In this document: piece by piece, positions 1,154 through 63,661 of the stretch
Layout: the number at the start of each line of letters is the position of its first letter
How positions within the stretch are numbered: the stretch's first letter is position 1
From: an uncultured Candidatus Saccharibacteria bacterium
Lineage (GTDB): Bacteria; Patescibacteriota; Minisyncoccia; Phycocordibacterales; UBA9973
DNA: 64,000 nucleotides
Assembly: GCA_964441495.1 (NCBI GenBank)
Contig: CAYTXV010000003.1
Span: 3,137-67,136 of the forward strand
Direction: 5' to 3'
Program-made: the position numbers and the translations under genes
Notes under the pieces: model-generated
The model's input: only the letters and a program-made list of their open reading frames with translations
What the model was told of the DNA's origin: nothing
Database searches by the model: none

Positions 1154-1159
1154 TATAAT
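1154..1159 (+). promoter_or_regulatory. -10 box (TATAAT) 7 nt upstream of the sugar transferase ATG; leaderless-type promoter
   Basis: TATAAT at 1154-1159, ATG at 1167; no Shine-Dalgarno sequence. Confidence 0.45.
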
Positions 1160-1166
1160 TTGAAGT

Positions 1167-2459
1167 ATGTTACAATCTCGACATACACTTCTTGTTCTGG
1201 GAGATGTCGTGGTACTCCTCGCGACGTTTTGTGTCATGGTAGCGATTAGGTTTGATCTTGCGACTCAGGCATCGTTTGTCACGCTCCAAGCGCAGCGATT
1301 TGCATGGATATTTGCATTGTGGCTCATCGTATTTTTTATCTTTGACCTCTACTCGATCAGACGTATCAACCCCAACCCTCGCACTATAGGACTCATCATC
1401 GCAGCGATGGGACTCAACACGCTCCTTGGTGTACTCATCTTTTATCTCTTCCCCCAAAACGGGATCACTCCCAAGACAAACCTCGCGATCATCGCCGGGA
1501 GCGCATTTGTACTCCTGGTTGCATGGCGTCGTGCGTACCACATCATCTCATCCAAACACTTGACGAGACGCATCATCCTGCTCGGCCAAAACCCACTCAT
1601 GGAGCATCTCGCAGAAGAGTTTCGCAAGCACCCACACTTTGGGACTGTCGTCGCACAATGGAGCACGCTTCCACAAACGGCTCAAGGTATCGATGCGGAT
1701 CTTGTGGTTGCGCATGGGATAGACCCTCAGACACTCGTGAACCTGACGCGCTCTACCCGCGCAGAGACCCTCACGCTCGACGAAGCGTACGAACTCATCT
1801 TTGCCAAAATCCCGCTCGAGCTCATGACGGATGAACGCGCACTCGCTTATATGACACAGCACACGAGTACACCAATGCGACTCGTATACCGCACACTTGA
1901 GATCCTCGGGGCATCGATTGTACTTCTCATTACCGCACCGTTTGTTGCACTTGGTGCACTTCTCGTATGGATTGAAGATAATGGACCTATGTTTATCAAA
2001 CAATCCCGCGTTGGCAAAAATGGAAATCGGTTTTTCATATATAAACTACGAAGCATGAAAGCGCTCAACAAAGACGGTTCCGCAGAAACAGGCGGTGCTG
2101 TATGGGCAGACAAACACGATCCTCGCATCACACGAGTCGGCCGGATCTTGCGCACAACACACCTCGACGAAGTCCCACAGATGTGGAACATCATCCGGGG
2201 CGATCTTGCAGCTATCGGTCCGCGCGCCGAACGCCCAGAGTTTGTCGCAACACTTGAAGAGCAGATCCCCTACTACTACCTTCGCCACACGATCAAACCT
2301 GGATTTACTGGGTGGGCACAGATCAAGTTTCGCTACGCGCGGTCAATAGAAGACTCAAAAGAAAAGTTTGAGTACGATCTATACTATCTCAAGAACAAAT
2401 CACCACTCCTTGATATCGGTATCGTCCTTAAAACACTCCAGATCATCTTTACGCACTAA
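1167..2459 (+). CDS. Polyprenyl-phosphate glycosylphosphotransferase (bacterial sugar transferase, WbaP/EpsB-like priming enzyme)
   Basis: Multi-TM N-terminus; C-terminal motifs KQSRVGKNGNRFFIYKLRSM, DPRITRVGRILRTTHLDEVPQ, GDLAAIGPRAERPEF typical of the PF02397 family. Confidence 0.9.
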   Translation: MLQSRHTLLVLGDVVVLLATFCVMVAIRFDLATQASFVTLQAQRFAWIFALWLIVFFIFDLYSIRRINPNPRTIGLIIAAMGLNTLLGVLIFYLFPQNGITPKTNLAIIAGSAFVLLVAWRRAYHIISSKHLTRRIILLGQNPLMEHLAEEFRKHPHFGTVVAQWSTLPQTAQGIDADLVVAHGIDPQTLVNLTRSTRAETLTLDEAYELIFAKIPLELMTDERALAYMTQHTSTPMRLVYRTLEILGASIVLLITAPFVALGALLVWIEDNGPMFIKQSRVGKNGNRFFIYKLRSMKALNKDGSAETGGAVWADKHDPRITRVGRILRTTHLDEVPQMWNIIRGDLAAIGPRAERPEFVATLEEQIPYYYLRHTIKPGFTGWAQIKFRYARSIEDSKEKFEYDLYYLKNKSPLLDIGIVLKTLQIIFTH

Positions 2460-2497
2460 GCTCGTAAAATAAGGGTAAAAATGCTATCGTACTAAGT

Positions 2498-3322
2498 GTG
2501 AAATCAGCAACAACTGTTATCAAACCCAAGAAACTTTTTAGCTTCTCGGATATCAAAGAGGTCTGGTTGTATCGAGAGTTGCTCTACTTTTTTACTTGGA
2601 GAGATCTCAAGGTGCGCTACAAACAAACAGCGGTAGGAGTTGCCTGGGCGGTGTTTCAACCATTTGTAACGATGGTGGTGTTTAGTTTGTTTTTTGGAAC
2701 CCTTGCAAAAGTCCCTTCTGATGGCGTACCGTATCCAATCTTTGTATATGTTGGACTATTGTTTTGGCAGTTTTTTTCTGGAGCACTGCTCGACACAAGC
2801 AACGCACTCATCAGCAATCAGTCCATCATCACCAAGGTGTACTTCCCTCGACTCGTGCTTCCAATCTCAAGTGTGATCACGCAGTTTATAGACTTTTTGA
2901 TTGGGACAGTTATCTTGGTAGGACTTATGATATATTATGGCTACACACCCAACCTTGGCGGGCTCGCACTTATCCCACTACTTCTTGCGATCACGTTTAT
3001 GGCATCGATTGGACTCGGGCTTGTCCTGACATCGCTTAACGTCAAGTACCGTGATGTACGCTACGTGCTTCCCTTTTTTATCCAAATGCTTTTGTTTGTC
3101 ACACCTGTTATCTATCCTGCAGGTATCGCAGGCAAATACTCATGGATCCTCGCACTTAACCCGATGATGGGTGTCATCCAAAGTGCCCGCGCAGCACTTC
3201 TGGGCACCACAGTGCTAAACTGGACACTCATAGGACTTTCTCTTGTTGCAACAGCGACACTCCTTGTAGTTGGACTGTATGTATTTAAAAAAACCGAACG
3301 ATACTTTGCAGATATCATCTAA
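2498..3322 (+). CDS. wzm: ABC-2 type polysaccharide export permease (Wzm/TagG-like)
   Basis: GTG start; 6-TM profile; N-terminal motif RELLYFFTWRDLKVRYKQTAVGVAWAVFQP typical of ABC-2 O-antigen/teichoic acid permeases; adjacent ATPase. Confidence 0.85.
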   Translation: MKSATTVIKPKKLFSFSDIKEVWLYRELLYFFTWRDLKVRYKQTAVGVAWAVFQPFVTMVVFSLFFGTLAKVPSDGVPYPIFVYVGLLFWQFFSGALLDTSNALISNQSIITKVYFPRLVLPISSVITQFIDFLIGTVILVGLMIYYGYTPNLGGLALIPLLLAITFMASIGLGLVLTSLNVKYRDVRYVLPFFIQMLLFVTPVIYPAGIAGKYSWILALNPMMGVIQSARAALLGTTVLNWTLIGLSLVATATLLVVGLYVFKKTERYFADII

Positions 3323-3326
3323 CACT

Positions 3327-5901: not shown

Positions 5902-6847
5902 AATCTCAACTGCAGGTGGTGGTACACCCTTTATGCGCCAAGCGCCCAGCGGTGTTGCAGTGTGGGATAAATGCGAATTTCTTATAAATAAAGATACCGA
6001 TGAGTGTGATCTCTGGGTCGTCTACGGAGGGCTTGGTAAGGACGAAACAGTGCGTGCTCGACACACACTGTTTGTGTCAAACGAACCACCAACCGTGAAG
6101 CGGTACAGCGCAAAGTTTTTGCAGCAGTTTGACACTGTTATGACATGTAAGCAATCAATCAAACATCCGCATGTTATATACAACCAACAGGCACTTCCCT
6201 GGCTCGTCGGACACAACTTCCGAGATGATGCGCACAACTCCAAAACATATGATGAACTAACATCTATCAAAGAAATCTCTAAAACAAAACGTATCTCTGT
6301 TATCACTTCAAACAAAACATTTACCAAAGGACATCGAGCACGAGTTTCTTTTGTACAAAAGCTACAACAAGAGTTTGGTGACATGATCGATGTGTTTGGT
6401 ATCGACAAGCAGGTAGATGACAAGTGGGACGCGATCGCGCCATACAAGTACCACATCGTGATCGAAAACGCCTCTCTTGATGATTATTGGACGGAGAAGC
6501 TTGCAGATGCATTTCTTGGACTTTCGTTTCCGATATACTATGGTGCTCCCAATATCACGACATACTTTGCATCAGATTCTCTCGTCAGTATCGATATCAC
6601 CAAACCTGACCAGGCACTACGCACCATCCGAGAGCTCGTCGCCTCTGATAGATACGAGCACTCTATACCAGCCCTACAGATTGCCAAAACCCAGATTTTG
6701 GATACGTATCAACTCTTCCCCATGCTTGCCCGCTATGCACAGAGCCTTGATCAAAAGGCTCATCGTACCATCACCCTTGCTCCAGAGCGTGAATCGGGTA
6801 TAGTGAGATATGTCAAACGTCTCTACCGCTATGTCAAAAGGTTCTAA
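5882..6847 (+). CDS. GT10-like glycosyltransferase (alpha-1,3/4-fucosyltransferase-like)
   Basis: Start trimmed to ATG 5882 (MKKLIVK); C-terminal block YKYHIVIENASLDDYWTEKLADAFLGLSFPIYYGAPN matches GT10 FucT motif (ENS..GYvTEK..DA....iPiYwG). Confidence 0.7.
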   Translation: MKKLIVKISTAGGGTPFMRQAPSGVAVWDKCEFLINKDTDECDLWVVYGGLGKDETVRARHTLFVSNEPPTVKRYSAKFLQQFDTVMTCKQSIKHPHVIYNQQALPWLVGHNFRDDAHNSKTYDELTSIKEISKTKRISVITSNKTFTKGHRARVSFVQKLQQEFGDMIDVFGIDKQVDDKWDAIAPYKYHIVIENASLDDYWTEKLADAFLGLSFPIYYGAPNITTYFASDSLVSIDITKPDQALRTIRELVASDRYEHSIPALQIAKTQILDTYQLFPMLARYAQSLDQKAHRTITLAPERESGIVRYVKRLYRYVKRF

Positions 6848-12288: not shown

Positions 12289-13341
12289 TTATACGAGGTA
12301 TTCTTGTGGGTCTACACCCTGATCAAGTAGTTCTTGTCTGAGCATGACATCAGCAAGCTCCGCCCAAGTAACTTTTGGCTCCCATCCAAGAACCCGCTTT
12401 GCTTTTGTTGCATCTCCGAGAAGTAGGTCGACTTCTGTTGGTCGATAATACACCGGATCGATACGGATAAGCGGCACCCCGCTATGTTCATCTTTGCCCA
12501 TTTCATCAAGTCCTTCACCTTCCCAGACAAGCTCATACCCGAGACGTTTTGCAACGTATTGTGCAAACGAGCGAACTGTCTGTGTCTGCCCTGTTGCAAT
12601 AACATAATCATCAGGAGTATCATGCTGCATCATAAGCCACATAGCCTCTACATACTCTTTGGCATACCCCCAATCACGTTTGGCATCAAGGTTGCCAAGA
12701 AATAACTCTTTTTGCTTCCCTAGTCGTATCGCAACGAGTCCTGCAACAATCTTTTTGGTGACAAATGTACCTCCTCGACGTGGAGACTCATGATTAAACA
12801 AGATACCATTACAAACAAACATCTCGTATGACTCACGATAGTTGATACTGATATGATGCGCAAATACTTTTGCACATGCATATGGGCTCCGTGGATAAAA
12901 AGGTGTTGTTTCTTTTTGTGGTGTTTCAAGTACTTTGCCAAACATCTCACTTGATCCCGCTTGATAAAACTTGATCTTTTTGCCGGTCGCCCTGATAGCT
13001 TCAAGGATACGAAGTGTACCAAGCGCATCAATGTCTGCGGTGTATTCTGGCATATCAAAACTAACACGAACATGGCTCTGAGCACCCAAGTGATATATCT
13101 CGTCCGGAGATACTGTGCCGATGATTTGATTGATGTTACTACTATCAGAGAGGTCTCCGTAATGAAGCACAAGTTTACGTCCGTTCTTGTGTGGGTCTTC
13201 ATATATATGTTCGATTCTGCCTGTATTGAAACTCGAAGAACGGCGGATAATGCCATGCACCTCATAGCCTTTTGCGATCAGCAGCTCCGCTAGATATGAA
13301 CCGTCTTGTCCCGTGATCCCTGTGATGAGGGCCTTTTTCAT
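12289..13341 (-). CDS. gmd: GDP-mannose 4,6-dehydratase
   Basis: [47 protein letters not shown]; SPYACAK; [10 protein letters not shown]. Confidence 0.95.
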
Positions 13342-13347
13342 ACTAGC

Positions 13348-13356
13348 ATTATACCA
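13348..13356 (-). promoter_or_regulatory. Extended -10 promoter (TGGTATAAT) 6 nt upstream of gmd ATG; leaderless-type
   Basis: Minus strand TGGTATAAT-gctagt-ATG. Confidence 0.5.
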
Positions 13357-14318: not shown

Positions 14319-16321
14319 TAATTTACCGTAAAATTAGGAACCTGTGATTGTGCATACTGAAATGCTTGTTTGTAAAGCTTTTCATTGCCGATCCCTTTGA
14401 GAAACTGTAGTAACAATTTATGAGAAACAGGAAGTGTCGGATCAATCGCTATCCCTGATTGATATGCGCTGATAACCGCTGGTATATCCCCTTTCCATGC
14501 TGCAAGTTGTGCATAGAGCCAGTAGATACGCGGATCGGTTGGAGCAAGTATCTGGGCATAGTCAATGTAATCACGAATATGCTGTGCAAGTGATGCGTCA
14601 TATGAGATATCAGAAAGAAAAATCTTGGTATTGTAGAGATTGACGAGTGTAAAATAGAGTCGGTAGTCCGTCTTGTTTGTTTGTGCAAGCTGTTCAAGGT
14701 ATGCAATGTACGCATCGACATCTTTTATTGCATGTGGAAGTACTTTTTGATCCTGCTTAATCACAAGCGGGTTTGCAGCATAGAGTTTGTATTCATCATA
14801 TGCAAAACCACTCACATCCCAATAGTTACCAACCGAAGATCCCTCCAGAAACTCTCGATATCGCGGGTACCGTTCGTTGAGCTTTGAACCAAGAACTTCT
14901 CCAAAAAGTTTTGCTTTCTGGGCTGGTTGATACGCGACTACATACATAGCAACAACAGAAACTGCAAGTAACATCACAAGTAAGTACTGATGTCTAGATG
15001 TTTCTTTTTTTTGAATTGTATCTTGAGTTTGAGGTATCACCCTATTGCCATACGCGACCGCTGCATAAATACCAACTATATAGATAGTGATGAACCCATC
15101 AAACGAAACAAGATCTTGAACAAGGTATGCAACGAGTGTGCTGATCAAAACTGACTTTTGTGTAGCGGTGAGCTTAGCATTGCGATAGATAAGGACAACA
15201 AGTGATCCAACAAAAAGTACGTAAAAGAGTACTCCTGGATATCCTCCAGCGACAGCATTGTTGTAGTACACATTGTGCGGTTGATCGGTCCATGCCTCAA
15301 ACGCAAGATTGCGCGAGAGAAATTGCGGATCAAAGTATCGTGCCTGTGCTATCGGGAAGTTTTCGGGGCCGTACCCCAGTAGTGGCCGCTCAGTCAGTAC
15401 CTTTTGTGAAATCTCCCAAAATGCAAATCGTGTCCCAGAAGCAAGTTCAACAAACTTATTATGTAGACTTGTTCCTGGGGTGACGAACTGGTGCCAGACA
15501 ACAACAAACATCCCTACCCCTGCAATGATCCCTGTCCATCCTATTGTACGGAGAGCTTTTTTTGTACTTTGCATCAAATACACCAGCGCCCCAACACCTC
15601 CTCCTACTACTATAGCGCCCAGCGCTGCACGCGCACTTCCAAGCACGCCACTTCCGGTAAACATACCATAAAGACTTAGAAACACTGGTGAGAACACGGC
15701 GCCTCCCACAAGTACCCATAACCATCCAGAGCGTTTGTTGCGCTCTGTTGCGATTAGGAACGTAAATCCCAGGATAAAGATAAGGTATGCGCCTGCAAGT
15801 GTTGAGTTGCCAGTGACTCCGCCTCCACTTGCTTTCCGTAGAATGTTCATCGGGATATGTAAACCTTCATCACCGAACCATACACTCAGAGCCACCACCG
15901 CTCCGCCAGCAACAACCCACTTGAGATATGTAGTGATAAACCCGGCATATCGCTTCGCAAGCGATACAAGCATCGTTGTGTGTACTGTGATCATGCCAAG
16001 CGTCATGAGTCCGGTGCCTCGCATGAGCGATCCCCAGATCGCAAGTCCGCTGTTGCGAGCAGTAACAGCAGTGATACCCATCCATACTAGATAAACAAAA
16101 AGTGGCGTCATCATATACCACTCGTTGCGCTTGAGTCGATATCGCGAGTCAACGATCAGTGCATAGAACCAAAATGCAAGTAAAAACAAGACACCGCCGT
16201 AGAACAAAAATACCTTTGATGTTGCGTGGGTAAAGACCCATCGCTCCCAAGTGATCCAAGGGATGAGGAACGCAAGTATATATAATCCGTATTTGAGCAC
16301 TGTTTCATATCGTGTATCCAT
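14318..16321 (-). CDS. O-antigen ligase/polymerase-like membrane protein with C-terminal TPR-like region
   Basis: ~10 TM helices; FAFWEISQKVLTERPLLGYGPENF typical of Wzy_C/O-antigen ligase family; start set to ATG 16321 (MDTRYE) 6 nt after a TGGTATACT -10 box. Confidence 0.75.
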   Translation of the reverse strand: MDTRYETVLKYGLYILAFLIPWITWERWVFTHATSKVFLFYGGVLFLLAFWFYALIVDSRYRLKRNEWYMMTPLFVYLVWMGITAVTARNSGLAIWGSLMRGTGLMTLGMITVHTTMLVSLAKRYAGFITTYLKWVVAGGAVVALSVWFGDEGLHIPMNILRKASGGGVTGNSTLAGAYLIFILGFTFLIATERNKRSGWLWVLVGGAVFSPVFLSLYGMFTGSGVLGSARAALGAIVVGGGVGALVYLMQSTKKALRTIGWTGIIAGVGMFVVVWHQFVTPGTSLHNKFVELASGTRFAFWEISQKVLTERPLLGYGPENFPIAQARYFDPQFLSRNLAFEAWTDQPHNVYYNNAVAGGYPGVLFYVLFVGSLVVLIYRNAKLTATQKSVLISTLVAYLVQDLVSFDGFITIYIVGIYAAVAYGNRVIPQTQDTIQKKETSRHQYLLVMLLAVSVVAMYVVAYQPAQKAKLFGEVLGSKLNERYPRYREFLEGSSVGNYWDVSGFAYDEYKLYAANPLVIKQDQKVLPHAIKDVDAYIAYLEQLAQTNKTDYRLYFTLVNLYNTKIFLSDISYDASLAQHIRDYIDYAQILAPTDPRIYWLYAQLAAWKGDIPAVISAYQSGIAIDPTLPVSHKLLLQFLKGIGNEKLYKQAFQYAQSQVPNFTVN

Positions 16322-16327
16322 ATCAAC

Positions 16328-16336
16328 AGTATACCA
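16328..16336 (-). promoter_or_regulatory. Extended -10 promoter (TGGTATACT), leaderless-type
   Basis: Minus strand TGGTATACT-gttgat-ATG immediately downstream of terminator. Confidence 0.5.
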
Positions 16337-49494: not shown

Positions 49495-49502
49495 ACGTTC
49501 CT

Positions 49503-49511
49503 AGTATAGCA
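49503..49511 (-). promoter_or_regulatory. Extended -10 promoter TGCTATACT(AG), 8 nt before ATG; leaderless-type
   Basis: Minus strand TGCTATACTAG-gaacgt-ATG. Confidence 0.55.
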
Positions 49512-50191: not shown

Positions 50192-50194
50192 ATA

Positions 50195-51472
50195 TTATCG
50201 GCCCAAGATGGCGCTGAGTGTATTTTGTCTGATAACCATACGTGCGGGGATGTACCCAGCAACGATCGTCGCGCCCAGAAGGATGACGGTACGCACAAGT
50301 GTCCCCGGAACTGTCGCAACAAGTATCCCATCAGAAAACGGAAAGTCGATAGGATTTGCAACAAAGAGTGGCTTGAGAAACGCAAACACTACGACGATAC
50401 CGATAAGTGATCCTGCGAGCGCGTAAAAGATAGACTGTACCATGTACGACACCGCAATTGCTCGTGGTGTGATCCCGATCCCCTTCAAGATACCGATGTA
50501 TCGTCTGCGCGTGATTGCGTTGACAAAGATAACGATAAATATAGTGATCGCGGCAACAACGAGTCCGATACTTGAGATTGCATTTCCGAGTATGCCAAAC
50601 GTTGCCTGGATATCTTTGAGGAACTTGGGGAGTGCTTCATCATGTGTCTGTACTCGACCAAATGCGCCGACACCGCTATCGATGAGTAACTGTTTGGCAA
50701 CAGTAGCGTCTGTGCCTGGGACGAGCTGGATCGCAATCTGGTTTGCATTGTAGTCACTGCGTCCGATAAGTTTGCGCGCTTCATTATCGAGCATGATGAT
50801 TGAACTATCAAATGTATCTACCTTGCTCTTGATGATACCTTTGACATAATACTCCTTGCGAACGTTTCCGATAGTGATCCGTACACGTGATCCGATAGAA
50901 ACATCTTTGAGTGTTTGAAATCCTGGCGCTTCGATTGGTGTGTATTTGTACAACAAGTTTTTGCCAAGGACAACCGAATCACTATCACCTGGTTCGATGA
51001 AGCTTCCTTCGACAACAAACGTATCGATCCCGGAGAACGTGCGTTCCGCAACAGGGTCGATCCCGAGAAGCGATCCACCCGCACCATCACGAAGCTCATC
51101 TGGCGCAATCGTTGTACGGTAGTTACTCTCGATGCGAGCACTTCCGGTATACCGAACAACAGACGCTCTGTACCCTGGGATAGTCTTTGCGATTGCAACT
51201 GCCTCGGGGGTGTGTTCGATGTATGGCTTGTTGAGAAATGACGAGACGACAATGTCCCCCGAAGAGTACTGCTTGTCTGCACTCACTGATCCTTCGATGA
51301 GTCCCACAAGGATACCGGAAACAACTACGAGGTTGAGAAATGTGAGTAGCATCACAAACACAATGAGTGTCGTTGTCCACGGATTTGCGCGCTTGAGATC
51401 TCGCTTTGCGAGAAACATCCCAACACGCACATCAGTCTGAAAGATCTTCCACCACCCTCCCTTTTTGGGCAT
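50195..51472 (-). CDS. ABC transporter permease, FtsX/MacB-like
   Basis: Start trimmed to ATG 51472 (MPKKGGWW), just past the upstream stop; 4 TM with large extracytoplasmic loop; RRRYIGILKGIGITPR motif. Confidence 0.88.
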   Translation of the reverse strand: MPKKGGWWKIFQTDVRVGMFLAKRDLKRANPWTTTLIVFVMLLTFLNLVVVSGILVGLIEGSVSADKQYSSGDIVVSSFLNKPYIEHTPEAVAIAKTIPGYRASVVRYTGSARIESNYRTTIAPDELRDGAGGSLLGIDPVAERTFSGIDTFVVEGSFIEPGDSDSVVLGKNLLYKYTPIEAPGFQTLKDVSIGSRVRITIGNVRKEYYVKGIIKSKVDTFDSSIIMLDNEARKLIGRSDYNANQIAIQLVPGTDATVAKQLLIDSGVGAFGRVQTHDEALPKFLKDIQATFGILGNAISSIGLVVAAITIFIVIFVNAITRRRYIGILKGIGITPRAIAVSYMVQSIFYALAGSLIGIVVVFAFLKPLFVANPIDFPFSDGILVATVPGTLVRTVILLGATIVAGYIPARMVIRQNTLSAILGR

Positions 51473-52915: not shown

Positions 52916-53425
52916 CTATTTGATTGCGATAAGCGAAACCTCAAAGATAAGCGTTGCGTTTGGTGGGATCACTCCAGGGATACCACCTGGTCCATACGCA
53001 AGATCTGATGGGATAGTAAGTACTCGAGTTTCGCCAAGCTGCATACCGAGCACACCCTGATCCCATCCCTTGATCACTTGACCTGCACCAACGACAAATG
53101 AGAATGTGCCGTCTCCTCGGTTTTTGCTTGCGTCAAAGACTGTGCCGTTTTCGAGTTTGCCGATATAGCTCACAACTGCAGTTTGTCCGTTTCTGATAGC
53201 TGGTCCGTTTCCTTCTTGGGTGATGTCGATATTCATAGTTACTTTTTTAGGTTTTGATAATGGGGTTGTTGGGTTGTACATTGTGTCAGGAAGCGCGTCT
53301 TGTTGTCCGACGAGCGCTGTACTGTCCGGCTCTGGAAGCTGCGCTTGGTTGTGTTTGCGCACTGCAACTATCACAACCGCAAGAACGATAAGCCCGATCC
53401 CGATCCATAGTTTGGGGTGCTTCAT
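52916..53425 (-). CDS. FKBP-type peptidyl-prolyl cis-trans isomerase, membrane-anchored
   Basis: FVVGAGQVIKGWDQGVLGMQLGETRVLTIPSDLAYG...ATLIFEV. Confidence 0.9.
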   Translation of the reverse strand: MKHPKLWIGIGLIVLAVVIVAVRKHNQAQLPEPDSTALVGQQDALPDTMYNPTTPLSKPKKVTMNIDITQEGNGPAIRNGQTAVVSYIGKLENGTVFDASKNRGDGTFSFVVGAGQVIKGWDQGVLGMQLGETRVLTIPSDLAYGPGGIPGVIPPNATLIFEVSLIAIK

Positions 53426-53433
53426 AGAACGCT

Positions 53434-53442
53434 AGTATAGCA
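53434..53442 (-). promoter_or_regulatory. Extended -10 promoter TGCTATACT(AG), 8 nt before ATG; leaderless-type
   Basis: Minus strand TGTGCTATACTAG-cgttct-ATG. Confidence 0.55.
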
Positions 53443-55308: not shown

Positions 55309-55998
55309 TTAAAATTGATTGAACCGCAGATCACCCTGGTATGCGAGTCGCACATCAGTGATGCCGTACTTTACATTTGCGAGACGATCGAGTCCCATAC
55401 CAAATGCAAATCCAGTGACCTTGTCTGGATCGTACTTCACATTCCTGAGCACATTGGGATGCACCATACCTGCACCACAGACCTCAAGCCACTTTTCTCC
55501 AACTTTCACATCTACCTCAAATCCTGGTTCCACAAATGGAAAGAAGCTCGGACGAAGTCTGATCTCGGTTGCTTCCCCAAAGAGTTCTTTAAAAAATGAA
55601 AGTAGTGTTCCCTTGAGATGCTCAACAGTGATACCCTCTCCTACGACGAGCCCCTCGAGCTGATGAAACTGCATCTCATGTGTGGCATCTGTTGCTTCAT
55701 TGCGAAACACCTTTCCAGGTACGACGATTGCAAATGGTGGTTTATGGTTTTCCATATAACGAATCTGCACCGGGGAGGTATGTGTGCGGAGCACTTTGCC
55801 CTCTTGTCCCTTAATCCAAAACGTATCCTGCATGTCACGAGCCGGATGATCCTTGGGGACATTGAGCGCGTCAAAGTTGTGCCACTCATCCTCAAGCTCT
55901 GGCCCAAGTGCGACTGAGAAGCCTTGTTTGGCAAGGATGTTGACTGCTTCTTCGGTGACGAGGGTGAGTGGGTGGAGCGCTCCTTTAGGTATTTCCAT
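55309..55998 (-). CDS. pheS: Phenylalanyl-tRNA synthetase alpha subunit, catalytic core only (229 aa)
   Basis: HPLTLV..., [68 protein letters not shown]. Confidence 0.92.
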
Positions 55999-56005
55999 TA
56001 GGGAA

Positions 56006-56013
56006 ACTATACA
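56006..56013 (-). promoter_or_regulatory. Extended -10 promoter TGTATAGT, 7 nt before pheS ATG; leaderless-type
   Basis: Minus strand TGTATAGT-ttcccta-ATG. Confidence 0.5.
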
Positions 56014-56035
56014 GAAAATATGGGGTTTTTACAAT

Positions 56036-56977
56036 TTACTTAAATAGATGTTTGATTTTTTGAAGCATCTTCCCAAACGAACTCTTCACTTTCCCTGGAC
56101 ACCCTTTCGGGCAATGGGTAAATCCTTTCTTTTCTAGTTGTATCTTTTCGCAAGACTCACAAATGATGAACTGTCCATTGCAGCCACCGTCTCGACAATC
56201 GACGATGTTTTCTGATTGTGCGCCGCAACTCTCACACTTGCCCACGATCACGTGCTTAGGATCATCGGTGTAGAACCCCATCGCAACACGCGCATCAAAG
56301 ACATAGAGCTTGCCATGAAAGTCTTCGTTCGGATACTTCTCCATATACGAGACGATGCCGCCATCGAGCTGGTACACATCTTTGAACCCTTGGGTGATGA
56401 GGTAGCCACTTGCCTTCTCACAGCGCACGCCACCAGTACACACCGTGAGCACTGTCTTGTCTTTGAGATGCGCGAGACTTTTGATGAATTTGGGCAAGTC
56501 GCGGAAGTTGTCCATCGGAGGACAGATCGAGTCTTTGAAGTGTCCGATCGCGTGCTCGTATGCGTTGCGCATATCAACGATGTAGAACTCTTTGCCGGTT
56601 TTGATCCACTCGTGAAGTTCTTCTGGTTTGAGGTGTACCCCCGTCGTTTGATTGGGATCGACATCACATACACCGAGATGGAGTGACACAATCTCTGGGC
56701 GCACTTTTACAGAGAGCCTCGGGAAGGCATTACCTGTGCCAACACTTCGCTTCATGTGGATGTTCAGGAATCTCGGATCAGCCTCCATTTCTTTGATGAA
56801 GGCTTCGGTGTTTTCTACTGTACCTTCGAGTGTGATATTGATGCCTTCCGATGCGACAATCAATCGTCCTTTAAGGCCAAGATTCTCACAGAGCGCGCGA
56901 AGCCAATCCCGCACTACTTCAGGGTTGTCGATGTGCACGTATTTATAGAAAAGGAGGATTTGATACTGACTATTCAT
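56036..56977 (-). CDS. trhO: Rhodanese-domain protein UPF0176 (TrhO-like tRNA U34 hydroxylase)
   Basis: ILLFYKYVHIDNPE..., LKGRLIVASEGINITLEG, rhodanese CTGGVRCEKA, C-terminal Cys cluster. Confidence 0.85.
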   Translation of the reverse strand: MNSQYQILLFYKYVHIDNPEVVRDWLRALCENLGLKGRLIVASEGINITLEGTVENTEAFIKEMEADPRFLNIHMKRSVGTGNAFPRLSVKVRPEIVSLHLGVCDVDPNQTTGVHLKPEELHEWIKTGKEFYIVDMRNAYEHAIGHFKDSICPPMDNFRDLPKFIKSLAHLKDKTVLTVCTGGVRCEKASGYLITQGFKDVYQLDGGIVSYMEKYPNEDFHGKLYVFDARVAMGFYTDDPKHVIVGKCESCGAQSENIVDCRDGGCNGQFIICESCEKIQLEKKGFTHCPKGCPGKVKSSFGKMLQKIKHLFK

Positions 56978-57006
56978 AGACGAGAGCTTAGCAAATTTCT
57001 ATCAAT

Positions 57007-57446: not shown

Positions 57447-57998
57447 TTATTTCTTATAGATATCTTGCAATAGATCTGCGTACTTTGCCTGCACCTTCTC
57501 AAGTTTGGGATTAATCACTGCAATACAGTACCCGGCGTTCTGGTGATTTGAATAATAGTCCTTGTGATAGTCTTCTGCTTCATAAAACGTCGGAAGTGGT
57601 TCGACTGTGGTGACAATCGGCGCGCCGTGTTCGTTTGACGCATTTGCTTCCGCGATGAACTTTTCTACGGCAACCTTTTGCTCCTCGGTCGTATAAAAGA
57701 CAACTGACCGATACTGCGTACCGATATCTGCACCTTGCTGATTGAGTGTCGTCGGGTCGTGACTACCAAAGAATACCGTGAGTAAATCTTCGTACTTCAC
57801 AAGCGATGGATCATACTCGACCTGCACCACTTCGACGTGCCCAGTCGTACCCGTACACACTTGTTCATATGTCGGGTTTGGCATGCTTCCACCTGCATAT
57901 CCAGGTACAACACTGCTAACCCCTTTCATCATCTTGAACACTGCCTCCGTGCACCAAAAGCATCCTCCTCCAAATACCGCTGTGTTTGTCTTTTTCAC
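57447..57998 (-). CDS. msrA: Peptide-methionine (S)-S-oxide reductase
   Basis: GTG start; AVFGGGCFWCTEAVF, GYAGG, GHVEVVQVEYDP, QYRS. Confidence 0.95.
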   Translation of the reverse strand: MKKTNTAVFGGGCFWCTEAVFKMMKGVSSVVPGYAGGSMPNPTYEQVCTGTTGHVEVVQVEYDPSLVKYEDLLTVFFGSHDPTTLNQQGADIGTQYRSVVFYTTEEQKVAVEKFIAEANASNEHGAPIVTTVEPLPTFYEAEDYHKDYYSNHQNAGYCIAVINPKLEKVQAKYADLLQDIYKK

Positions 57999-58032
57999 AT
58001 CTTTACTATAACAGAGTTGTTAAGTAAAAGTT

Positions 58033-58548
58033 TTAGATATTTAATTCCTTTCTCAAAAGAAGTTCTTTCACCTTATCGCGAAGTCCGTAAATATTTGTTA
58101 CTTTTTTCAGATTCTCATCATTACTTCCCTTAAGGTTAACAATAATTTCAATTAGATAATCTTTTTTATAGACATATCCATCCGGAGCAACTATATCACC
58201 TATTTCATTTAAATTTTGTGTAAGACCTCGAAGATCAAAAGAGGTGTTGATTTTACTTTTATTTATTGTTTCTAAATCAGACTTTTCTACTTTTGAATCA
58301 GCGTAAAACTCTTTCTCTGGTTGATCTTCTACTGATTCAACACTCTCTGGTTTGACAGTGGTAGCTTCTCGAATCTTGGTAATTAAAGCATTTAATTCTC
58401 CTTGTTTTACTTCTAATTCGGTATCAATGCTTTCACCAGCAATTTTTCTATCTATCAGATTTCTCACCTCCTCAGAAAGAGTAGGTAGTTGAAGCTTTAA
58501 TGCTTCTATAGAATCATTGTTCGTAAGATTTTCTATTGTGTTTTCCAT
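58033..58548 (-). CDS. Hypothetical protein, coiled-coil rich, AT-rich gene
   Basis: 171 aa from ATG 58548 (MENTIEN); no family recognised. Confidence 0.5.
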   Translation of the reverse strand: MENTIENLTNNDSIEALKLQLPTLSEEVRNLIDRKIAGESIDTELEVKQGELNALITKIREATTVKPESVESVEDQPEKEFYADSKVEKSDLETINKSKINTSFDLRGLTQNLNEIGDIVAPDGYVYKKDYLIEIIVNLKGSNDENLKKVTNIYGLRDKVKELLLRKELNI

Positions 58549-58569
58549 ATAATGACAGTATACCACTTA

Positions 58570-60309
58570 CTACCGCTCCCCGACCTGTTGGCGCCACATC
58601 GCTTGGTACAGTCCTTGTTTTGCAATGAGCTCATCGTGCGTACCGCTTTCACTGATAGACCCCTTTTCGAGTACATAGATCCGATCTGCGTGCATGATGG
58701 TCGAGAGTCGGTGCGCGATGAGGATCGTGATGCGTTCGTTTGTCCCAGAGACATCTTTGATTGTCTTACTGATTTCTTCTTCGGTGATACTATCGAGCGC
58801 ACTTGTCGCCTCATCAAAGATAAGAATGTTAGGATTGCGCAAAAGCGCGCGAGCGATCGAGAGGCGCTGTTTCTCTCCACCAGAGACCTTCACGCCACCT
58901 TCGCCGATGACTGTGTCGAGTCCTTTGCCGCCGCGCTCAAGAAGGTTGGCACATTGTGCTTTGTAGAGCGCATTGAGACACTCTGCGTCGGTTGCGCGTG
59001 GATTTACAAACAACAAGTTTTCACGAATAGTTCCTGAGAAAAGCTGCGTGTCTTGTGTCACAAAGCCGATCTGTGTGCGAAGCTCGTCTTTGTCGATGTC
59101 TTTGTATGAGATGCCGTTGTAGACAATGTCGCCGGTTGTTGGCTCGTAGAGGCCAACGAGGAGCTTCACGAGCGAGGTCTTGCCTGATCCTGATGGCCCG
59201 ACAAATGCAATCGTCTCTCCTTGTTTAACACTGTAGCTGATATCCGTGAGCGCTTGAGTAGAAGCAGATTTATAACCAAATGAGACATCCTTAAATGAAA
59301 GCGTGGTCACTTCTCCTACCTGAACAGGACTCTCAGGCCGAGGCTCGGGTTTGGTCTCCATAAGCGCTTGATAGTTAGCAAGGGACGCTTCTGCCTGGCG
59401 ATAGGTTGCGATATATCCTGCAATCTGAGTAAGCGGGAAAAACAATATCCATGAATAAATATTGAGAGAAAAATACTGCCCCAGTGTGATACGCTGCGTA
59501 AAGATGAGGTAGAACAAAAAGAAATACAGTCCTGCGCGTACTGCGTTGGTCACAGTACCCTGGATGAAATCAAGCATGCGCAGATATTTGAGTTTCTTGA
59601 GCTCGAGTTTCAAAATTTTTTCGGTTGTTGTATTGAGTCGATCAACCTCCTGCCCAGTGAGTCCTAGGCTTTTTACCAATTCAATATTGCGCAAACTTTC
59701 GGTGGTTGCTCCAGCGAGCGCTGTTGTTTCTGCAACAATAACCTTTTGAATCGTTTTAATTTTCTTTGAAAAAAGTACTGTAATCGTACCGATAATGACA
59801 ATCATGCCTATGTACACTACTGGTATCAACCAAAAGATAGTTGCTGCATACACCATGATGAAGACAAGGATGATCGCAGAAATGAGAATCACATTGATTG
59901 TATCCTGAAGTAACTTTTCGGTATCCTGTCGAGCTTTTTGCAATTTACCAAGCGTCTCCCCGCTTCGTTCATCTTCAAAGACTCCGTACGGCAGCTCGAG
60001 CGAGTGACGAACACCTTCGCGATACATATCTGCACCACTGCGCTGTGTTACTGTGTTGAGATAATAGTCTTGGAAGTTTTTGGCAATGCGAGACACGAGT
60101 GCGGTACCCATAAATGCAAGCAGAAGAAGTCCTGTTCCACGGAAAAACTCAGCCCGAGTAAGCTCACTAAATCGTAGCGCGTAGTTGTCGATGATGCGCT
60201 GATAGATGATCGGTTCAACAAGTGAAAAAAGTTGATTGATGATCGCAAGGACGATCACCAAGAGACACATCTTCCAGTATTTGCGCAGGTATTGTTTGAG
60301 GATTTGCAT
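58570..60309 (-). CDS. ABC exporter, fused permease/ATPase (MsbA/multidrug type)
   Basis: 6-TM N-domain; GPSGSGKTSL, VSGGEKQRLSIARA, ILIFDEATSALD. Confidence 0.92.
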   Translation of the reverse strand: MQILKQYLRKYWKMCLLVIVLAIINQLFSLVEPIIYQRIIDNYALRFSELTRAEFFRGTGLLLLAFMGTALVSRIAKNFQDYYLNTVTQRSGADMYREGVRHSLELPYGVFEDERSGETLGKLQKARQDTEKLLQDTINVILISAIILVFIMVYAATIFWLIPVVYIGMIVIIGTITVLFSKKIKTIQKVIVAETTALAGATTESLRNIELVKSLGLTGQEVDRLNTTTEKILKLELKKLKYLRMLDFIQGTVTNAVRAGLYFFLFYLIFTQRITLGQYFSLNIYSWILFFPLTQIAGYIATYRQAEASLANYQALMETKPEPRPESPVQVGEVTTLSFKDVSFGYKSASTQALTDISYSVKQGETIAFVGPSGSGKTSLVKLLVGLYEPTTGDIVYNGISYKDIDKDELRTQIGFVTQDTQLFSGTIRENLLFVNPRATDAECLNALYKAQCANLLERGGKGLDTVIGEGGVKVSGGEKQRLSIARALLRNPNILIFDEATSALDSITEEEISKTIKDVSGTNERITILIAHRLSTIMHADRIYVLEKGSISESGTHDELIAKQGLYQAMWRQQVGER

Positions 60310-60317
60310 AGGCGGCT

Positions 60318-60326
60318 AGTATAGCA
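60318..60326 (-). promoter_or_regulatory. Extended -10 promoter TGCTATACT(AG), 8 nt before ATG; leaderless-type
   Basis: Minus strand TGCTATACTAG-ccgcct-ATG. Confidence 0.55.
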
Positions 60327-60357: not shown

Positions 60358-60858
60358 CTATTGATTCATCGGCATATCGACACCACCCCAGAGGTTTGAG
60401 GTACCAAGCGATGTGTTACCAGAAGCTTTGATGTAGAGGAAGAGCTGCATTTTGTACGCAGCAAGCCACTTGAGTATACTCTCGACAAGATACACCGCCT
60501 TTGGTTTGTCCCCCATGCCATACATGTTGATCACTGTCGCAAAGTCTTCATCAGTATACTGCGCGAGAATTTCTTTGAACTTCGCTTCTTGTCTATCCAT
60601 CATGTCAGCAAAGTTTGCAACGCTAACCTCTGCACTCGAGGGCATAAGTGTGCTGTAGAGCGACATGTCGTTTTTCAATATAACTTCAGCAGTTGCTGCA
60701 AAAACAACCGCGACATATTGGAGGAGTTCGAGTGTGCTTCGCTGTCCTTCAGTCGGTTTGTATCCGTCGGTACCTGCAGGGATCTTTTCTGCAAGGTGTT
60801 TATAGATACGAAACTCATTGGTGACAGCGTCGAGAAATTGTTCTTTGGTGTATAGCAT
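60358..60858 (-). CDS. Hypothetical protein, possibly DinB-like four-helix bundle
   Basis: 166 aa, helical; weak resemblance only. Confidence 0.4.
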   Translation of the reverse strand: MLYTKEQFLDAVTNEFRIYKHLAEKIPAGTDGYKPTEGQRSTLELLQYVAVVFAATAEVILKNDMSLYSTLMPSSAEVSVANFADMMDRQEAKFKEILAQYTDEDFATVINMYGMGDKPKAVYLVESILKWLAAYKMQLFLYIKASGNTSLGTSNLWGGVDMPMNQ

Positions 60859-60866
60859 AGAGTGCT

Positions 60867-60875
60867 AGTATAGCA
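60867..60875 (-). promoter_or_regulatory. Extended -10 promoter TGCTATACT(AG), 8 nt before ATG; leaderless-type
   Basis: Minus strand TGCTATACTAG-cactct-ATG. Confidence 0.55.
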
Positions 60876-60877: not shown

Positions 60878-61498
60878 CTACGGCAATGTGAAGAATCCAA
60901 GCCACACTGATACAAAGTTGAGCACTGCATGCATGGCGCAGACAAGTACAATGTTTGGATAGCGTTCATACAGATATGAAAACGTCACCCCTGCTACTGC
61001 TGCAAGCGGAAGCCCGATGAGTGGGAACGGATACATGATATGCAGAAACGTAAAAAGTGCGGTGTTCAGGAGTACTCGTACCCATAAACGATCAGTGAGT
61101 ACTCGCAACCGCTGGACGAGAAATGTTCGATACGCGATTTCTTGTAGCACCGAAAGCGGAATAAAAAAGAGGATCAGTTCTGGACGAGCTCGAAGTGCAA
61201 AGGTGTCGAGCGGTACAAACCCAACGACTGCCGCAAACCATTTGAGTGCTACCACGCCGACAATAGTGATGCTACTGTACCAAACCACTGCGCGCCCAAG
61301 TCGTATCGGGCCAAGCCCTACCATCTCTTTGGTCCACCGTTCATGTTTGATGATAGACAAAAGGATGAGCGAAACTGATAGAAGTACAATCACCCGCCAC
61401 TCAATCGGGATGATGTTGAAGTAGATAAGGAGTACCGGCGCAACAAAAAACGTGATGATTTCGATACCTATATCCTTTTTGGAATGTGTGGGATGCAT
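60878..61498 (-). CDS. CPBP-family intramembrane glutamic endopeptidase (CAAX protease-like)
   Basis: LQEIAYRTFL (EExxxR-like), FTFLHIMY, AMHAVLNF motifs. Confidence 0.8.
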   Translation of the reverse strand: MHPTHSKKDIGIEIITFFVAPVLLIYFNIIPIEWRVIVLLSVSLILLSIIKHERWTKEMVGLGPIRLGRAVVWYSSITIVGVVALKWFAAVVGFVPLDTFALRARPELILFFIPLSVLQEIAYRTFLVQRLRVLTDRLWVRVLLNTALFTFLHIMYPFPLIGLPLAAVAGVTFSYLYERYPNIVLVCAMHAVLNFVSVWLGFFTLP

Positions 61499-61505
61499 GT
61501 AATTG

Positions 61506-61578
61506 GGGGCCTATCGGGAATCGAACCCGAATCGAAGGTTCCACAAACCTCAGTGTTAACCGTTACACCATAAGCCCC
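61506..61578 (-). tRNA. tRNA-His (GUG) with genomically encoded G-1; CCA not encoded
   Basis: Hand-folded cloverleaf: G(-1)+GGGCTTA acceptor, D stem GTGT/ACAC, anticodon loop TTGTGGA, T arm TCGGG-TTCGATT-CCCGA, discriminator C. Confidence 0.9.
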
Positions 61579-61607
61579 ATGTGGCGCGACTTTCGTTATA
61601 CCAGATT

Positions 61608-62591
61608 TTATTGCCCTTGACTAGGAGGCTGCTGGTAACGGACAACGACTCGTTCGTAGACCTGTGAAATGAGAACAATGGTCGCCACCACTACAACGTA
61701 CAGTGCAATACCCTCTCGAAGTGGGAGTGCGATCCGTCGAAGTGAACCGAGTATAAACGCGGTATACCAACTCGTGATAGAGATTGCTCCGAGCGCAAAT
61801 GCAAGTCTACGAAATCGTCGCGCAGGAACGATGTTTTGAAATGAGAACATGCGCATTCGTGGCGCCACAAGCAGGTTGAGCAAAAATCCATTGATCGTGA
61901 TCACTGATACGACAACGAGTTTGAGAAGGAACTTTGCCGACACGTCTAGTCGTGCTTGGTCTGGCAAGTACAACATGATGCCACTTGCAACAAGTATCGC
62001 AAGTCCAATCCATATAACTGCAGAGAGCATATCCATAGTCGCCTTTTCTTGCTCGGTGATGACATGGTCGCGCAAAAATCTGAAAAAGAGTACGTCGGTG
62101 ATCGTCGCACCACCAAGGCCAAGCACAAATCCGATGTTGTGCACGATCACCCAAAATAATCGCTGTGAACCGATAAGTGCAAACAGTTCTGTTGTTGGTA
62201 GGCCCCAGAGCGATAGGACAAGAAGTACGTTTGCTGCTGCAGATCCGAGGCACCACAGACACCACGCACGGATCACAAGAGCTTGGAGCGCAATGAGATA
62301 GATACTAAAGAGCGCTCCTGCAATAGTAAGTGCAACAAGTACCCACAAAAGCCCTGGTGCCACGACCCCAAATCCAACCGCACTCCAGAGTACGAGCTGT
62401 AGTACATAGTAGCCGATACCGAGTACTTCGTTGTTGATACCAAGCGTCGTTGCGTGTGTACTATGTACAACCTTGTCGCAGTTACTCTCTCTCGGACAAA
62501 CGAGTCGTGTCTTGGTTTGTTTCTTTTTGAAAATATAGAGCGATACTCCGAGTCCGAGTATCGCACCGATGATCCCGAGGATTGTTACCAT
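61608..62591 (-). CDS. Vitamin K epoxide reductase (VKOR)-family protein fused to an additional polytopic membrane domain
   Basis: N-terminal loop Cys pair CPRESNC, CLWC redox motif in a TM helix; ~190-aa C-terminal TM domain unassigned. Confidence 0.7.
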   Translation of the reverse strand: MVTILGIIGAILGLGVSLYIFKKKQTKTRLVCPRESNCDKVVHSTHATTLGINNEVLGIGYYVLQLVLWSAVGFGVVAPGLLWVLVALTIAGALFSIYLIALQALVIRAWCLWCLGSAAANVLLVLSLWGLPTTELFALIGSQRLFWVIVHNIGFVLGLGGATITDVLFFRFLRDHVITEQEKATMDMLSAVIWIGLAILVASGIMLYLPDQARLDVSAKFLLKLVVVSVITINGFLLNLLVAPRMRMFSFQNIVPARRFRRLAFALGAISITSWYTAFILGSLRRIALPLREGIALYVVVVATIVLISQVYERVVVRYQQPPSQGQ

Positions 62592-62604
62592 ACGCAGTAG
62601 TATA

Positions 62605-63612
62605 TCAAATCATCGTTTCTGTTTTGTACACACTCACAAGTGCATACATAAATGAAATCGCAAGTGGACCAATGAGTATACCAATAGGACCCATGAGTGC
62701 GAGTGCCCCAAGGATAGAAAAAAGTACAAGAAGCGGATGGATGTCTATCTTGCGTCCCACCAAAAGCGGGTTGAGCATGTTGTCGACTGTGCCAACAAGC
62801 GCAGCTGCCCAGATACCAAGCCCGATAGCCTGAGCACTATCGCCCGAAACGATAAGGTAGAGCACCGCAGGGATAGCAACGAGTGCAGTGCCGATCGTCG
62901 GGATGAGTGATGCGATACCAGAGAGCACTCCCCAGAGCGCAGCGTTGGGTACACCAAATATCCACAAACCAACACCCATGAGCACTCCCTGAACAATCGC
63001 AATAAGCAAGTAGCCTTTGACGATACCGTTCACCGCAAGGCGCATCTTTTCGATGATGGCGTGATCACTTGCATCCGAAAGTGGACTCAGTCGAAGCAGT
63101 GTCTCTTTCCAACGAAGTCCGTCTTTGAGGAAGTAAAACATTGAGAGTATCACAAGTGTAAATCCAAACAGTGTTGAAAGTGTGGCACTAAACGCACTCC
63201 CTACCCGAGCAGAAAGATTTCCTACTACAGAAGTGATACTCTCGTTGAGATTGATCACACCACCGGGGACCATACGACTTATCGATTGATTAAAGAGGCT
63301 CGTGATGTTGTCGAACCCTCCATGCTGGACAACCCATGTTTGGATATTTTGTGTTTGTTGAAACACAAGCGTCCCCACGGTCAGGAGCGGGATGCATAGC
63401 ACAATAATAAAAAGAATAATCGTCAGCAGTGCCGCAACCCACGAAACACCGAGTTTGCGCTTCAAAAAGCGATGCACAGGATACAACACTGCAGAAAGCG
63501 CAAGTGAAAGAATGATCACTTTTACAAACGGCCATAGTATGAGTACGGTGAGTACTCCCCCAACCAACAATAGTCCCCCATAAAAGTATCGTCGCACAGC
63601 GTGGTCTTGCAT
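62605..63612 (-). CDS. AI-2E family transporter (second paralog)
   Basis: 8-TM profile; GIASLIPTIGTALVAIPAVL and HPLLVLFSILGALALMGPIGILIGP blocks. Confidence 0.85.
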   Translation of the reverse strand: MQDHAVRRYFYGGLLLVGGVLTVLILWPFVKVIILSLALSAVLYPVHRFLKRKLGVSWVAALLTIILFIIVLCIPLLTVGTLVFQQTQNIQTWVVQHGGFDNITSLFNQSISRMVPGGVINLNESITSVVGNLSARVGSAFSATLSTLFGFTLVILSMFYFLKDGLRWKETLLRLSPLSDASDHAIIEKMRLAVNGIVKGYLLIAIVQGVLMGVGLWIFGVPNAALWGVLSGIASLIPTIGTALVAIPAVLYLIVSGDSAQAIGLGIWAAALVGTVDNMLNPLLVGRKIDIHPLLVLFSILGALALMGPIGILIGPLAISFMYALVSVYKTETMI

Positions 63613-63661
63613 ATAAACAAAGTATACACTATAGTACCCAGTACATTCTTTTCAAGAATTT

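Follow-up and report, generated by a model that had tools for sequence, protein, structure and literature searches.

The window analysed here is a stretch of 64,000 nucleotides (contig CAYTXV010000003.1, positions 3,137 to 67,136 of the forward strand), in which 66 genes were delimited with a self-trained hexamer model and manual additions and were annotated with Pfam. The G+C content of the window is about 47%, with an island of 39.6% at 44-48 kb. The top relatives of its arginyl-tRNA synthetase (ArgRS; 43079-41421), with at most 78% identity, are encoded in metagenome-assembled genomes (MAGs) labeled Candidatus Paceibacterota, Nomurabacteria and Parcubacteria, and 'Saccharibacteria' in third-party annotation records; judged by these relatives, the DNA is from an uncultured, ultra-small bacterium of the Candidate Phyla Radiation (CPR)/Patescibacteria, Paceibacteria/Parcubacteria group. 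A set of 80 related Paceibacteria loci with 1,086 genes was used for comparison. The subject of this report is a hexamer resembling the bacterial -10 promoter element, which lies directly in front of the start codon, mostly at a distance of 6-8 nt, in 24 of the 66 genes (about 36%). Here we describe these sites, the genes that carry or lack them and the near absence of Shine-Dalgarno (SD) sequences, together with the interpretation that most of the 24 genes are probably transcribed into leaderless mRNAs.

The sites are listed below with their coordinates (through the start codon), strand and gene, followed by the three bases preceding the hexamer, the hexamer itself and the spacing to the start codon.

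1151-1169, plus strand: sugar transferase (Bac_transf), gene 1167-2459; TCA TATAAT, 7 nt, ATG.
2482-2500, plus strand: ABC-2 permease (wzm-like), gene 2498-3322; TGC TATCGT, 7 nt, GTG.
6796-6812, plus strand: 338-aa gene, start 6810; GGG TATAGT, 5 nt, ATG; a weaker case, with the motif within the upstream gene.
13339-13356, minus strand: GDP-mannose 4,6-dehydratase (gmd); TGG TATAAT, 6 nt, ATG; Pfam domain from residue 5.
16319-16336, minus strand: Wzy_C/O-antigen-ligase-like gene; TGG TATACT, 6 nt, ATG; terminator hairpin GCCGCCTTCGGGCGG and T-run directly 5'.
29166-29183, minus strand: AI-2E transporter; TGG TACGAT, 6 nt, ATG; motif in 5/5 orthologues.
30520-30539, minus strand: class II aminoacyl-tRNA synthetase (originally named glyQS); TGG TACGAT, 8 nt, ATG; promoter within the 3' end of the upstream gene, motif in 14/24 orthologues.
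32410-32431, minus strand: DUF11 surface protein, start 32412; TGC TATACT, 10 nt, ATG; predicted leader of about 3-4 nt, the box 10 nt upstream (TGCTATACT) being the better match.
32988-33007, minus strand: RecO; GTG TACAAT, 8 nt, ATG; RecO_N aligned from residue 1.
39580-39599, minus strand: beta-CASP RNase (RNase J-like); CGG TACAAT, 8 nt, ATG; promoter within the end of the upstream gene, ACGGTACAAT kept in 17/20 orthologues.
39978-39995, minus strand: 132-aa membrane protein; TGG CATACT, 6 nt, ATG; terminator hairpin 5'.
40766-40785, minus strand: nucleoside diphosphate kinase (ndk); ATA TATGAT, 8 nt, ATG; terminator-like hairpin 5'.
43077-43095, minus strand: arginyl-tRNA synthetase (argS); TGC TATTAT, 7 nt, ATG.
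43532-43549, minus strand: dUTPase; TGC TACAAT, 6 nt, ATG; motif in 23/42 orthologues.
49492-49511, minus strand: SIMPL/DUF541; TGC TATACT AG (identical 11-mer), 6 nt, ATG; motif in 8/8 orthologues.
53423-53442, minus strand: FKBP isomerase; TGC TATACT AG (identical 11-mer), 6 nt, ATG.
55996-56014, minus strand: PheRS alpha (pheS); CTG TATAGT, 7 nt, ATG.
56975-56993, minus strand: TrhO-like (UPF0176/rhodanese); TGC TAAGCT, 7 nt, ATG.
57996-58013, minus strand: MsrA; TGT TATAGT, 6 nt, GTG; PMSR domain from residue 6.
58546-58565, minus strand: 171-aa gene, start 58548; TGG TATACT, 8 nt, ATG.
60307-60326, minus strand: ABC exporter; TGC TATACT AG (identical 11-mer), 6 nt, ATG.
60856-60875, minus strand: 166-aa gene (originally named 'DinB-like'); TGC TATACT AG (identical 11-mer), 6 nt, ATG.
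62589-62607, minus strand: VKOR; TGA TATACT, 7 nt, ATG.
63610-63629, minus strand: second AI-2E transporter; GTG TATACT, 8 nt, ATG.

The 11-mer TGCTATACTAG occurs in four copies on the minus strand (49501, 53432, 60316 and 60865), with none expected according to 100 shuffles, and every copy is followed by 6 nt and then ATG, a distance that corresponds to 8 nt when counted from the hexamer. The original prediction had reported these four copies as part of a list of 18 genes with their spacings; the copies were recovered exactly, and all 18 entries were verified. The gene names that it had proposed agree with Pfam, except that the 'DinB-like' gene yields no Pfam match. Motif genes not on that list are argS, ndk, the beta-CASP RNase and those with starts at 58548, 6810 and 32412.

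Enrichment was assessed using the first ATG of each of 65 open reading frames (ORFs), picked without regard to the motif. In 22 of the 65 ORFs, TANNNT ends 6-8 nt before this ATG; with internal in-frame ATGs as the background, 1.7 such cases would be expected, and with all ATGs, 2.8 (binomial p 2e-14). Counted over the whole window, the loose pattern TGNTANANT shows no enrichment (37 occurrences vs 34.3 expected); the enrichment is positional, with a sharp peak at 6-8 nt. Positional enrichment is present in the 80 related loci as well, where the histogram of TANNNT spacings peaks at 6 nt, and additionally at 8 nt in the closest relatives, at 3-6 times background.

The 24 sites were aligned on the hexamer alone, and neither the TG nor the T at -17 was a selection criterion. 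The resulting logo reads T-n-T-G-n-T-A-t-a-c/a-T. TG is found at -15/-14, one base 5' of the hexamer, in 16 of the 24 sites (background 7.4%, p 4e-13), and T at -17 in 17 of the 24. The alignment has no information content at -40 to -20, including the -35 position, and a scan for classical -35/-10 pairs gave 27 hits vs 29.6 expected (i.e., no enrichment) and missed most of the motif sites. In E. coli and Gram-positive bacteria, the extended -10 consensus is T-R-TG-n-TATAAT, and the -35 element is dispensable. The TG and the T at -17 together make up this bacterial extended -10 consensus, and T-n-TG-n-TA(T/C)A(C/A)T is by its sequence a promoter of the housekeeping sigma-70, extended -10 type without a conserved -35 (for the nomenclature of promoter elements, see PMC12641261). 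In four motif genes, a terminator-like hairpin and its T-run stop just a few bases short of the TG (control rate 2.8%), which leaves no room for another promoter at those genes. An extended -10 (TGGTACAGT) also borders the 5' side of an L10-leader-like RNA and is thus present where no start codon follows.

Regarding the start codons of the motif genes, these appear reliable. In most cases the ATG next to the motif is the first start codon of any type after the upstream in-frame stop. Counted from the motif-proximal start, Pfam domains begin close to the N-terminus (RecO_N at residue 1, GDP_Man_Dehyd at 5, PMSR at 6, NDK at 8 and Arg_tRNA_synt_N at 5), and the same starts were obtained for FKBP, SIMPL and SecE in independent gene calls on Logan contigs. 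The start codon is ATG in 22 of the 24 motif genes, which matches the expectation for leaderless translation. The ends of the Logan contigs were considered as transcript-derived evidence for mRNA 5' ends and were rejected, because the contigs with window proteins are multi-gene genomic fragments.

The motif follows the arrangement of the genes. Genes count as separated here if they diverge from their upstream neighbor or start 13 nt or more behind it; the motif precedes 21 of 40 such genes vs 3 of 26 tightly coupled genes of the window (Fisher p 7e-4). About half of the separated genes are thus built with a -10 element at the start, some of them directly behind the preceding terminator. Among the coupled genes, gaps range from -121 to +9 nt; 14 of the 26 lie at 1-5 nt, and four have an overlap of -4 or -1. 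One such junction is the following.

50189-50197, minus strand: stop codon of the FtsX permease gene to the ATG of the ABC ATPase gene, 3 nt apart; no -10 and no SD.

The same distribution was seen when the genes of the window were pooled with those of 47 SD-poor related loci (783 genes in all): the share of genes with the motif is 64% at gaps of 12-30 nt, compared with 13% at 0-5 nt and 5% at overlaps of -4 nt (p 1e-12); at gaps of 31-80 nt it is 47%. The gap classes are cleanly split, with junctions of 1-5 nt lacking the motif and those of 12 nt or more carrying it. Stop-to-start distances at the pooled same-strand junctions form a sharp peak at +1 to +4 nt (90 pairs). Overlaps of -4 and -1, which are typical of many bacteria, are less frequent in the pooled loci (19 and 9 pairs, respectively). 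Starts a few nucleotides from the upstream stop and without an SD, as termination-reinitiation demands, are what was found at the coupled junctions, and the downstream cistrons are most likely translated by such coupling. The long overlaps in the polysaccharide cluster are probably only apparent and due to first-ATG starts placed too far upstream; e.g., a glycosyltransferase called from 10609 has a more likely start at 10492, which would give an ATGA overlap.

SD sequences are almost absent from the window. A 4-mer core of the SD was detected upstream of 6% of the genes vs 11-12% for internal ATGs and random sites, and the mean hybridization energy with the anti-SD is weaker upstream of the window genes than in the background. 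The positive control of the detector came from two distant loci, L080 (60%) and L060 (45%), which contain obvious AAGGAG sites. These distant Parcubacteria (e.g., a Yonathbacteria MAG) have a canonical AAGGAG SD in 45-60% of their genes, plus some genes with a -10 at the start. As these loci are rich and the window is poor in SD sequences, SD use varies within the class. The original prediction had stated that SD sequences are not used and that no GGAGG-like sequence precedes the motif genes or operon-internal genes; this holds in that the signal is at or below background, and has to be amended to 'almost none' in view of the following site.

45957-45962, minus strand: GGAGGT within AAAGGAGGT, 5 nt before the ATG at 45951; the sole strong, canonical SD of the window.

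The operon-internal gene behind it (45951-45118, minus strand) encodes a protein of 277 aa with a dCMP-deaminase domain, has an ATGA overlap with the upstream cytidylyltransferase-like gene and lies in the low-GC island. GGAGGT is invariant before this gene in eight genomes (the window, L002, L003, L004, L008, L009, L023 and L025), the proteins of which are 36-76% identical, and neither the flanking bases nor the C-terminal tail of the upstream protein are conserved around it. Among 481 genes of the close clade, no other SD recurs. Because of the invariance of GGAGGT, a functional anti-SD is probably still present on the ribosome, and in a lineage otherwise free of SD sequences this site may act as a control device specific to its gene. 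The surrounding block of nucleotide-metabolism genes (43607-47305; G+C 39.6%) interrupts the usual order secE-nusG-rplK-(rplA) and comprises the genes for thymidylate synthase, an unknown protein of 148 aa, the dCMP-deaminase-domain protein, the cytidylyltransferase-like protein and dihydrofolate reductase (DHFR). None of the genes of the block has the -10 motif at the start, and orthologous blocks occur in several related loci. Among known RNA families, Rfam yielded two tRNAs and a weak L10 leader in the window and no 16S rRNA; universal 16S motifs were found in none of the 80 related loci.

The position of the element is conserved in related genomes. In argS, most of the 27 closest orthologues examined (L001-L027) have TTTTCTGCTAGAAT or TGGTATAGT 6-8 nt before the ATG, and the spacer bases between the -10 and the ATG are variable. 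Considering all genes, the motif is kept in 139 of 224 orthologues (62%) of motif genes vs 49 of 276 orthologues (18%) of non-motif genes (p 1e-24). This retention shows the juxtaposition of promoter and start codon to be gene-specific and under selection.

Taken together, we consider it probable (about 0.8) that sigma-70-type extended -10 promoters start transcription at the AUG or at most 2 nt before it, and that downstream cistrons are served by termination-reinitiation. With spacings of 6, 7 and 8 nt, the A of the start codon lies 7, 8 or 9 bp, respectively, downstream of the hexamer; as RNA polymerase normally initiates within 7-9 bp of the -10, the transcript would begin at the AUG or about 2 nt before it, and this placement would result in a leaderless mRNA. 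Leaderless mRNAs are decoded via the 5'-terminal AUG and the initiator tRNA, without SD pairing, and ribosomes would recognize the motif genes in this manner. Genes further downstream in a transcription unit, which have neither a -10 nor an SD, would be reached by reinitiation after the nearby upstream stop, and leadered genes, which are in the minority (e.g., the L10 operon, ftsK and rplK), by SD-independent initiation on A/U-rich leaders. Across 49 bacteria, transcription start sites (TSSs) were found to be centered 7 bp downstream of the -10 (PMC12641261). The spacing peak, the TG, the distribution over gene classes and the conservation all support the earlier claim that the -10 is so placed as to put the predicted TSS on the start codon or no more than about 2 nt from it. 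The accompanying word 'pervasive' fits about 36% of the genes and about half of the first genes; it does not extend to all genes, and leadered transcripts are present as well.

Several observations weigh against this interpretation or restrict it. The spacing is 8 nt in 11 of the 24 motif genes, so that the A falls at position 9 and thus at the limit of what is usual; depending on the sequence of the spacer, some genes of this class probably start 1-2 nt upstream, and their predicted 5' untranslated regions (UTRs) of 0-2 nt would still be leaderless by the usual definition of 0-5 nt. A T at -1 was considered as a 'start element' signal of the TSS and was discarded: it is present in 21 of the 24 motif genes, but also in 31 of the 42 others, hence it is common in all genes and not specific to the choice of the TSS. 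About half of the separated genes lack the motif, among them rplK, secE, rpsF, efp and recA, in which a -10 is missing at 5-8 nt. Leadered copies of the motif genes could arise by read-through or from promoters further upstream. Given the conserved GGAGGT, SD-dependent initiation has probably not been abandoned entirely. The support as a whole consists of sequence statistics and conservation, from which leaderless transcription is inferred.

Three other explanations were compared with promoters placed at the start codon. According to one, the motif would be a non-SD ribosome-binding site (RBS) acting in the RNA, as in 'group B' of GeneMarkS-2, read by an altered 16S tail or a ribosomal protein, and the genes would be leadered, with their promoters lying further upstream. 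A distance of 6-8 nt is indeed typical of an RBS, and promoter and RBS signals can be confused at such distances (PMC6028130); furthermore, the anti-SD is reported to be missing or changed in about half of the Parcubacteria (PMC9297842). We nevertheless regard this as very improbable. The sequence is that of the bacterial extended -10 consensus including the TG at -15/-14 and the T at -17, and a similar element heads a non-coding leader. At coupled internal genes the motif is rare (3 of 26 in the window, and 13% and 5% in the pooled classes), whereas group-B motifs precede all genes; the terminator hairpins at several genes leave no space for another promoter, and the conserved canonical GGAGGT at one gene implies a normal anti-SD.

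It is also conceivable, although unlikely, that the -10 boxes are real but minor or conditional promoters, and that translation occurs mostly from longer polycistronic or leadered transcripts in an SD-independent way (S1-dependent or by reinitiation). Only 13-50 nt separate many motif genes from a preceding gene on the same strand, and a recognizable upstream terminator exists in 4 of the 24, which makes read-through plausible, and leadered genes without an SD are clearly present in the window. A secondary internal promoter, however, would not need a fixed distance of 6-8 nt from the ATG; the position of motif and ATG is strongly conserved across genomes whose proteins are 40-80% identical, and the gap classes are cleanly split between junctions with and without the motif. 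An artefact of AT-rich intergenic composition, of upstream stop codons and of starts picked near TATA-like strings can be regarded as largely refuted and is hardly credible any more. It would agree with the lack of enrichment of the loose pattern across the window and with the over-representation of TANNNT at spacings of 0-4, to which upstream TAA/TAG stops contribute; but the test blind to the motif still gave 22 cases vs about 2-3 expected at 6-8 nt, the TG enrichment and the conservation in orthologues are independent of the choice of starts, and the starts are backed by the Pfam N-termini and the independent gene calls.

In the literature, leaderless transcription in bacteria is recognized by a Pribnow box located 6-8 nt from gene starts, which GeneMarkS-2 defines as group C; this group consists mainly of Actinobacteria and Deinococcus-Thermus, in which 25-50% of the operons are leaderless and internal genes use SD sequences (PMC6028130). 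The organization of the window is of this known type, the variant trait being that the SD is unused for the remaining genes. As in Mycobacterium, Streptomyces, Corynebacterium and Deinococcus, the -10 lies at 6-8 nt from first genes and is largely lacking before operon-internal genes (3/26 vs 21/40 in the window; 5-13% vs 47-64% in the pooled set). Unlike in these genera, where internal or leadered genes use the SD, SD sequences are here at or below background; in addition, the present lineage belongs to the CPR/Paceibacteria, has a G+C content of about 47%, and its -10 mostly has the TG extension, without a detectable -35. Archaea of 'group D' (Haloferax, Halobacterium, Sulfolobus) are similar in that most first genes are leaderless and downstream genes are often SD-less and tightly coupled, but they differ in their transcription machinery and have a TATA box/BRE about 26 nt upstream instead of the bacterial -10 seen here. 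The sigma-70 extended -10 promoters (TGnTATAAT) of E. coli and Gram-positives share the consensus and the dispensable -35 with the window sites; in those model bacteria they stand before SD-bearing 5' UTRs, whereas here they abut the start codon. The Bacteroidota likewise make almost no use of the SD and yet conserve a strong SD in very few genes, which implies a retained anti-SD; an example is rpsU of the Flavobacteria. Their mRNAs, in contrast to those predicted here, are leadered, with A-rich upstream regions and -7/-33 promoters.

Within the Parcubacteria, the anti-SD was not detected in about half of the members, a set overlapping with the group that lacks uL1, in an analysis of which mRNA 5' ends and promoters were not part (Tsurumaki et al. 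2022; PMC9297842). The window resembles these organisms in its broad lineage, in the lack of L1 after L11 and in the lack of an SD signal, but differs in the conserved GGAGGT, which suggests that an anti-SD may be present. The genes secE-nusG-rplK are followed by unrelated genes, with no L1 after L11, in the window (47377-48606, minus strand) and in 48 of 48 related loci, although L1 could lie elsewhere in the genome; Pfam gave no match, to L1 or otherwise, for an ORF of 175 aa (1065-538) upstream of rplJ. The arrangement would fit the uL1-lacking group of Parcubacteria (PMC9297842). As a proxy for anti-SD status, however, uL1 was rejected: L1 is missing after L11 in SD-rich and SD-poor loci alike, which makes it uninformative on the anti-SD. 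In the literature searched, no paper linking leaderless mRNAs to CPR, Patescibacteria, Parcubacteria or Saccharibacteria was found, and nothing on SD use in the CPR beyond PMC9297842, although such work may have been published.

A more far-reaching suggestion, which we put forward tentatively and would not rate at even odds, is that this clade of the Paceibacteria largely gave up the SD and relies on leaderless first cistrons, driven by extended -10 promoters that lack a -35 and adjoin the ATG, and on reinitiation over 1-5 nt, with an SD only on one nucleotide-metabolism gene. If this is true, the transition from SD to no SD would lie inside the group, given that distant Parcubacteria still use the SD, and it could be dated on a tree and compared with the reductions of the ribosome (uL1, bS21 and the anti-SD). 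SD-using and SD-free lineages in one class would form a natural series for the change of an initiation mechanism in a bacterium, and the arrangement would be a functional counterpart to the published reduced ribosomes and missing anti-SD motifs of the CPR. It would also suggest that these organisms have almost no 5'-UTR layer of gene regulation. In practical terms, gene callers that depend on the SD would give unreliable starts in CPR MAGs, which a model with the promoter at the start should improve; the motif and the coupling rule of 1-5 nt already settle several ambiguous starts in the window. As for genetic tools, expression cassettes for the newly tractable Patescibacteria would have to contain no more than TGnTATACT, 6-8 nt and an ATG, and no RBS.

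A few genes of the window have, or are predicted to have, a leader. Two of them are the following.

361-495, minus strand: leadered rplJ, with a TTGACT-16 nt-TGGTACAGT promoter (495-468), an L10-leader-like 5' UTR (471-361) and the ATG at 349; no SD.
19616-19643, plus strand: ftsK, TGT TATACT, 16 nt, ATG; predicted leader of about 10 nt, no SD.

The rplJ leader measures about 110 nt, and its match to RF00557 is sub-threshold (39.1 bits vs a gathering score of 44, E 0.008). The rplJ promoter is among the few in the window with a good -35. A 65-aa ORF (24040-24264, minus strand; ATG at 24237) with two predicted hydrophobic segments lies between the convergent genes efp and rpsR. It had been named in the original prediction as an orphan transcription unit exposed by the motif; a box (TGCTATAGT) is present, but at 18 nt upstream, so that the ORF is not leaderless by the rule of 6-8 nt. 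The predicted leaders of the DUF11 gene, ftsK and the 65-aa ORF measure about 3-12 nt. No SD was found at rplJ, ftsK, the DUF11 gene, the 65-aa ORF, rplK, secE, rpsF, efp or recA.

The tRNA-His gene (61577-61505, minus strand) is followed after 6 nt by the ATG (61498) of a CAAX-protease-like gene lacking a -10 of its own, and a TGGTATAAC box is located about 17 nt upstream of the tRNA (window 61496-61603). The 5' end of the CAAX-protease-like mRNA may be made by 3' processing of the tRNA, in a manner similar to tRNA punctuation. In the isoleucyl-tRNA synthetase (34003-37350, minus strand), a His_Phos_1 domain is inserted at residues 493-658, inside the catalytic domain, and a TGGTAGTAT box (37540-37532) lies about 180 nt upstream of the ATG of this gene.

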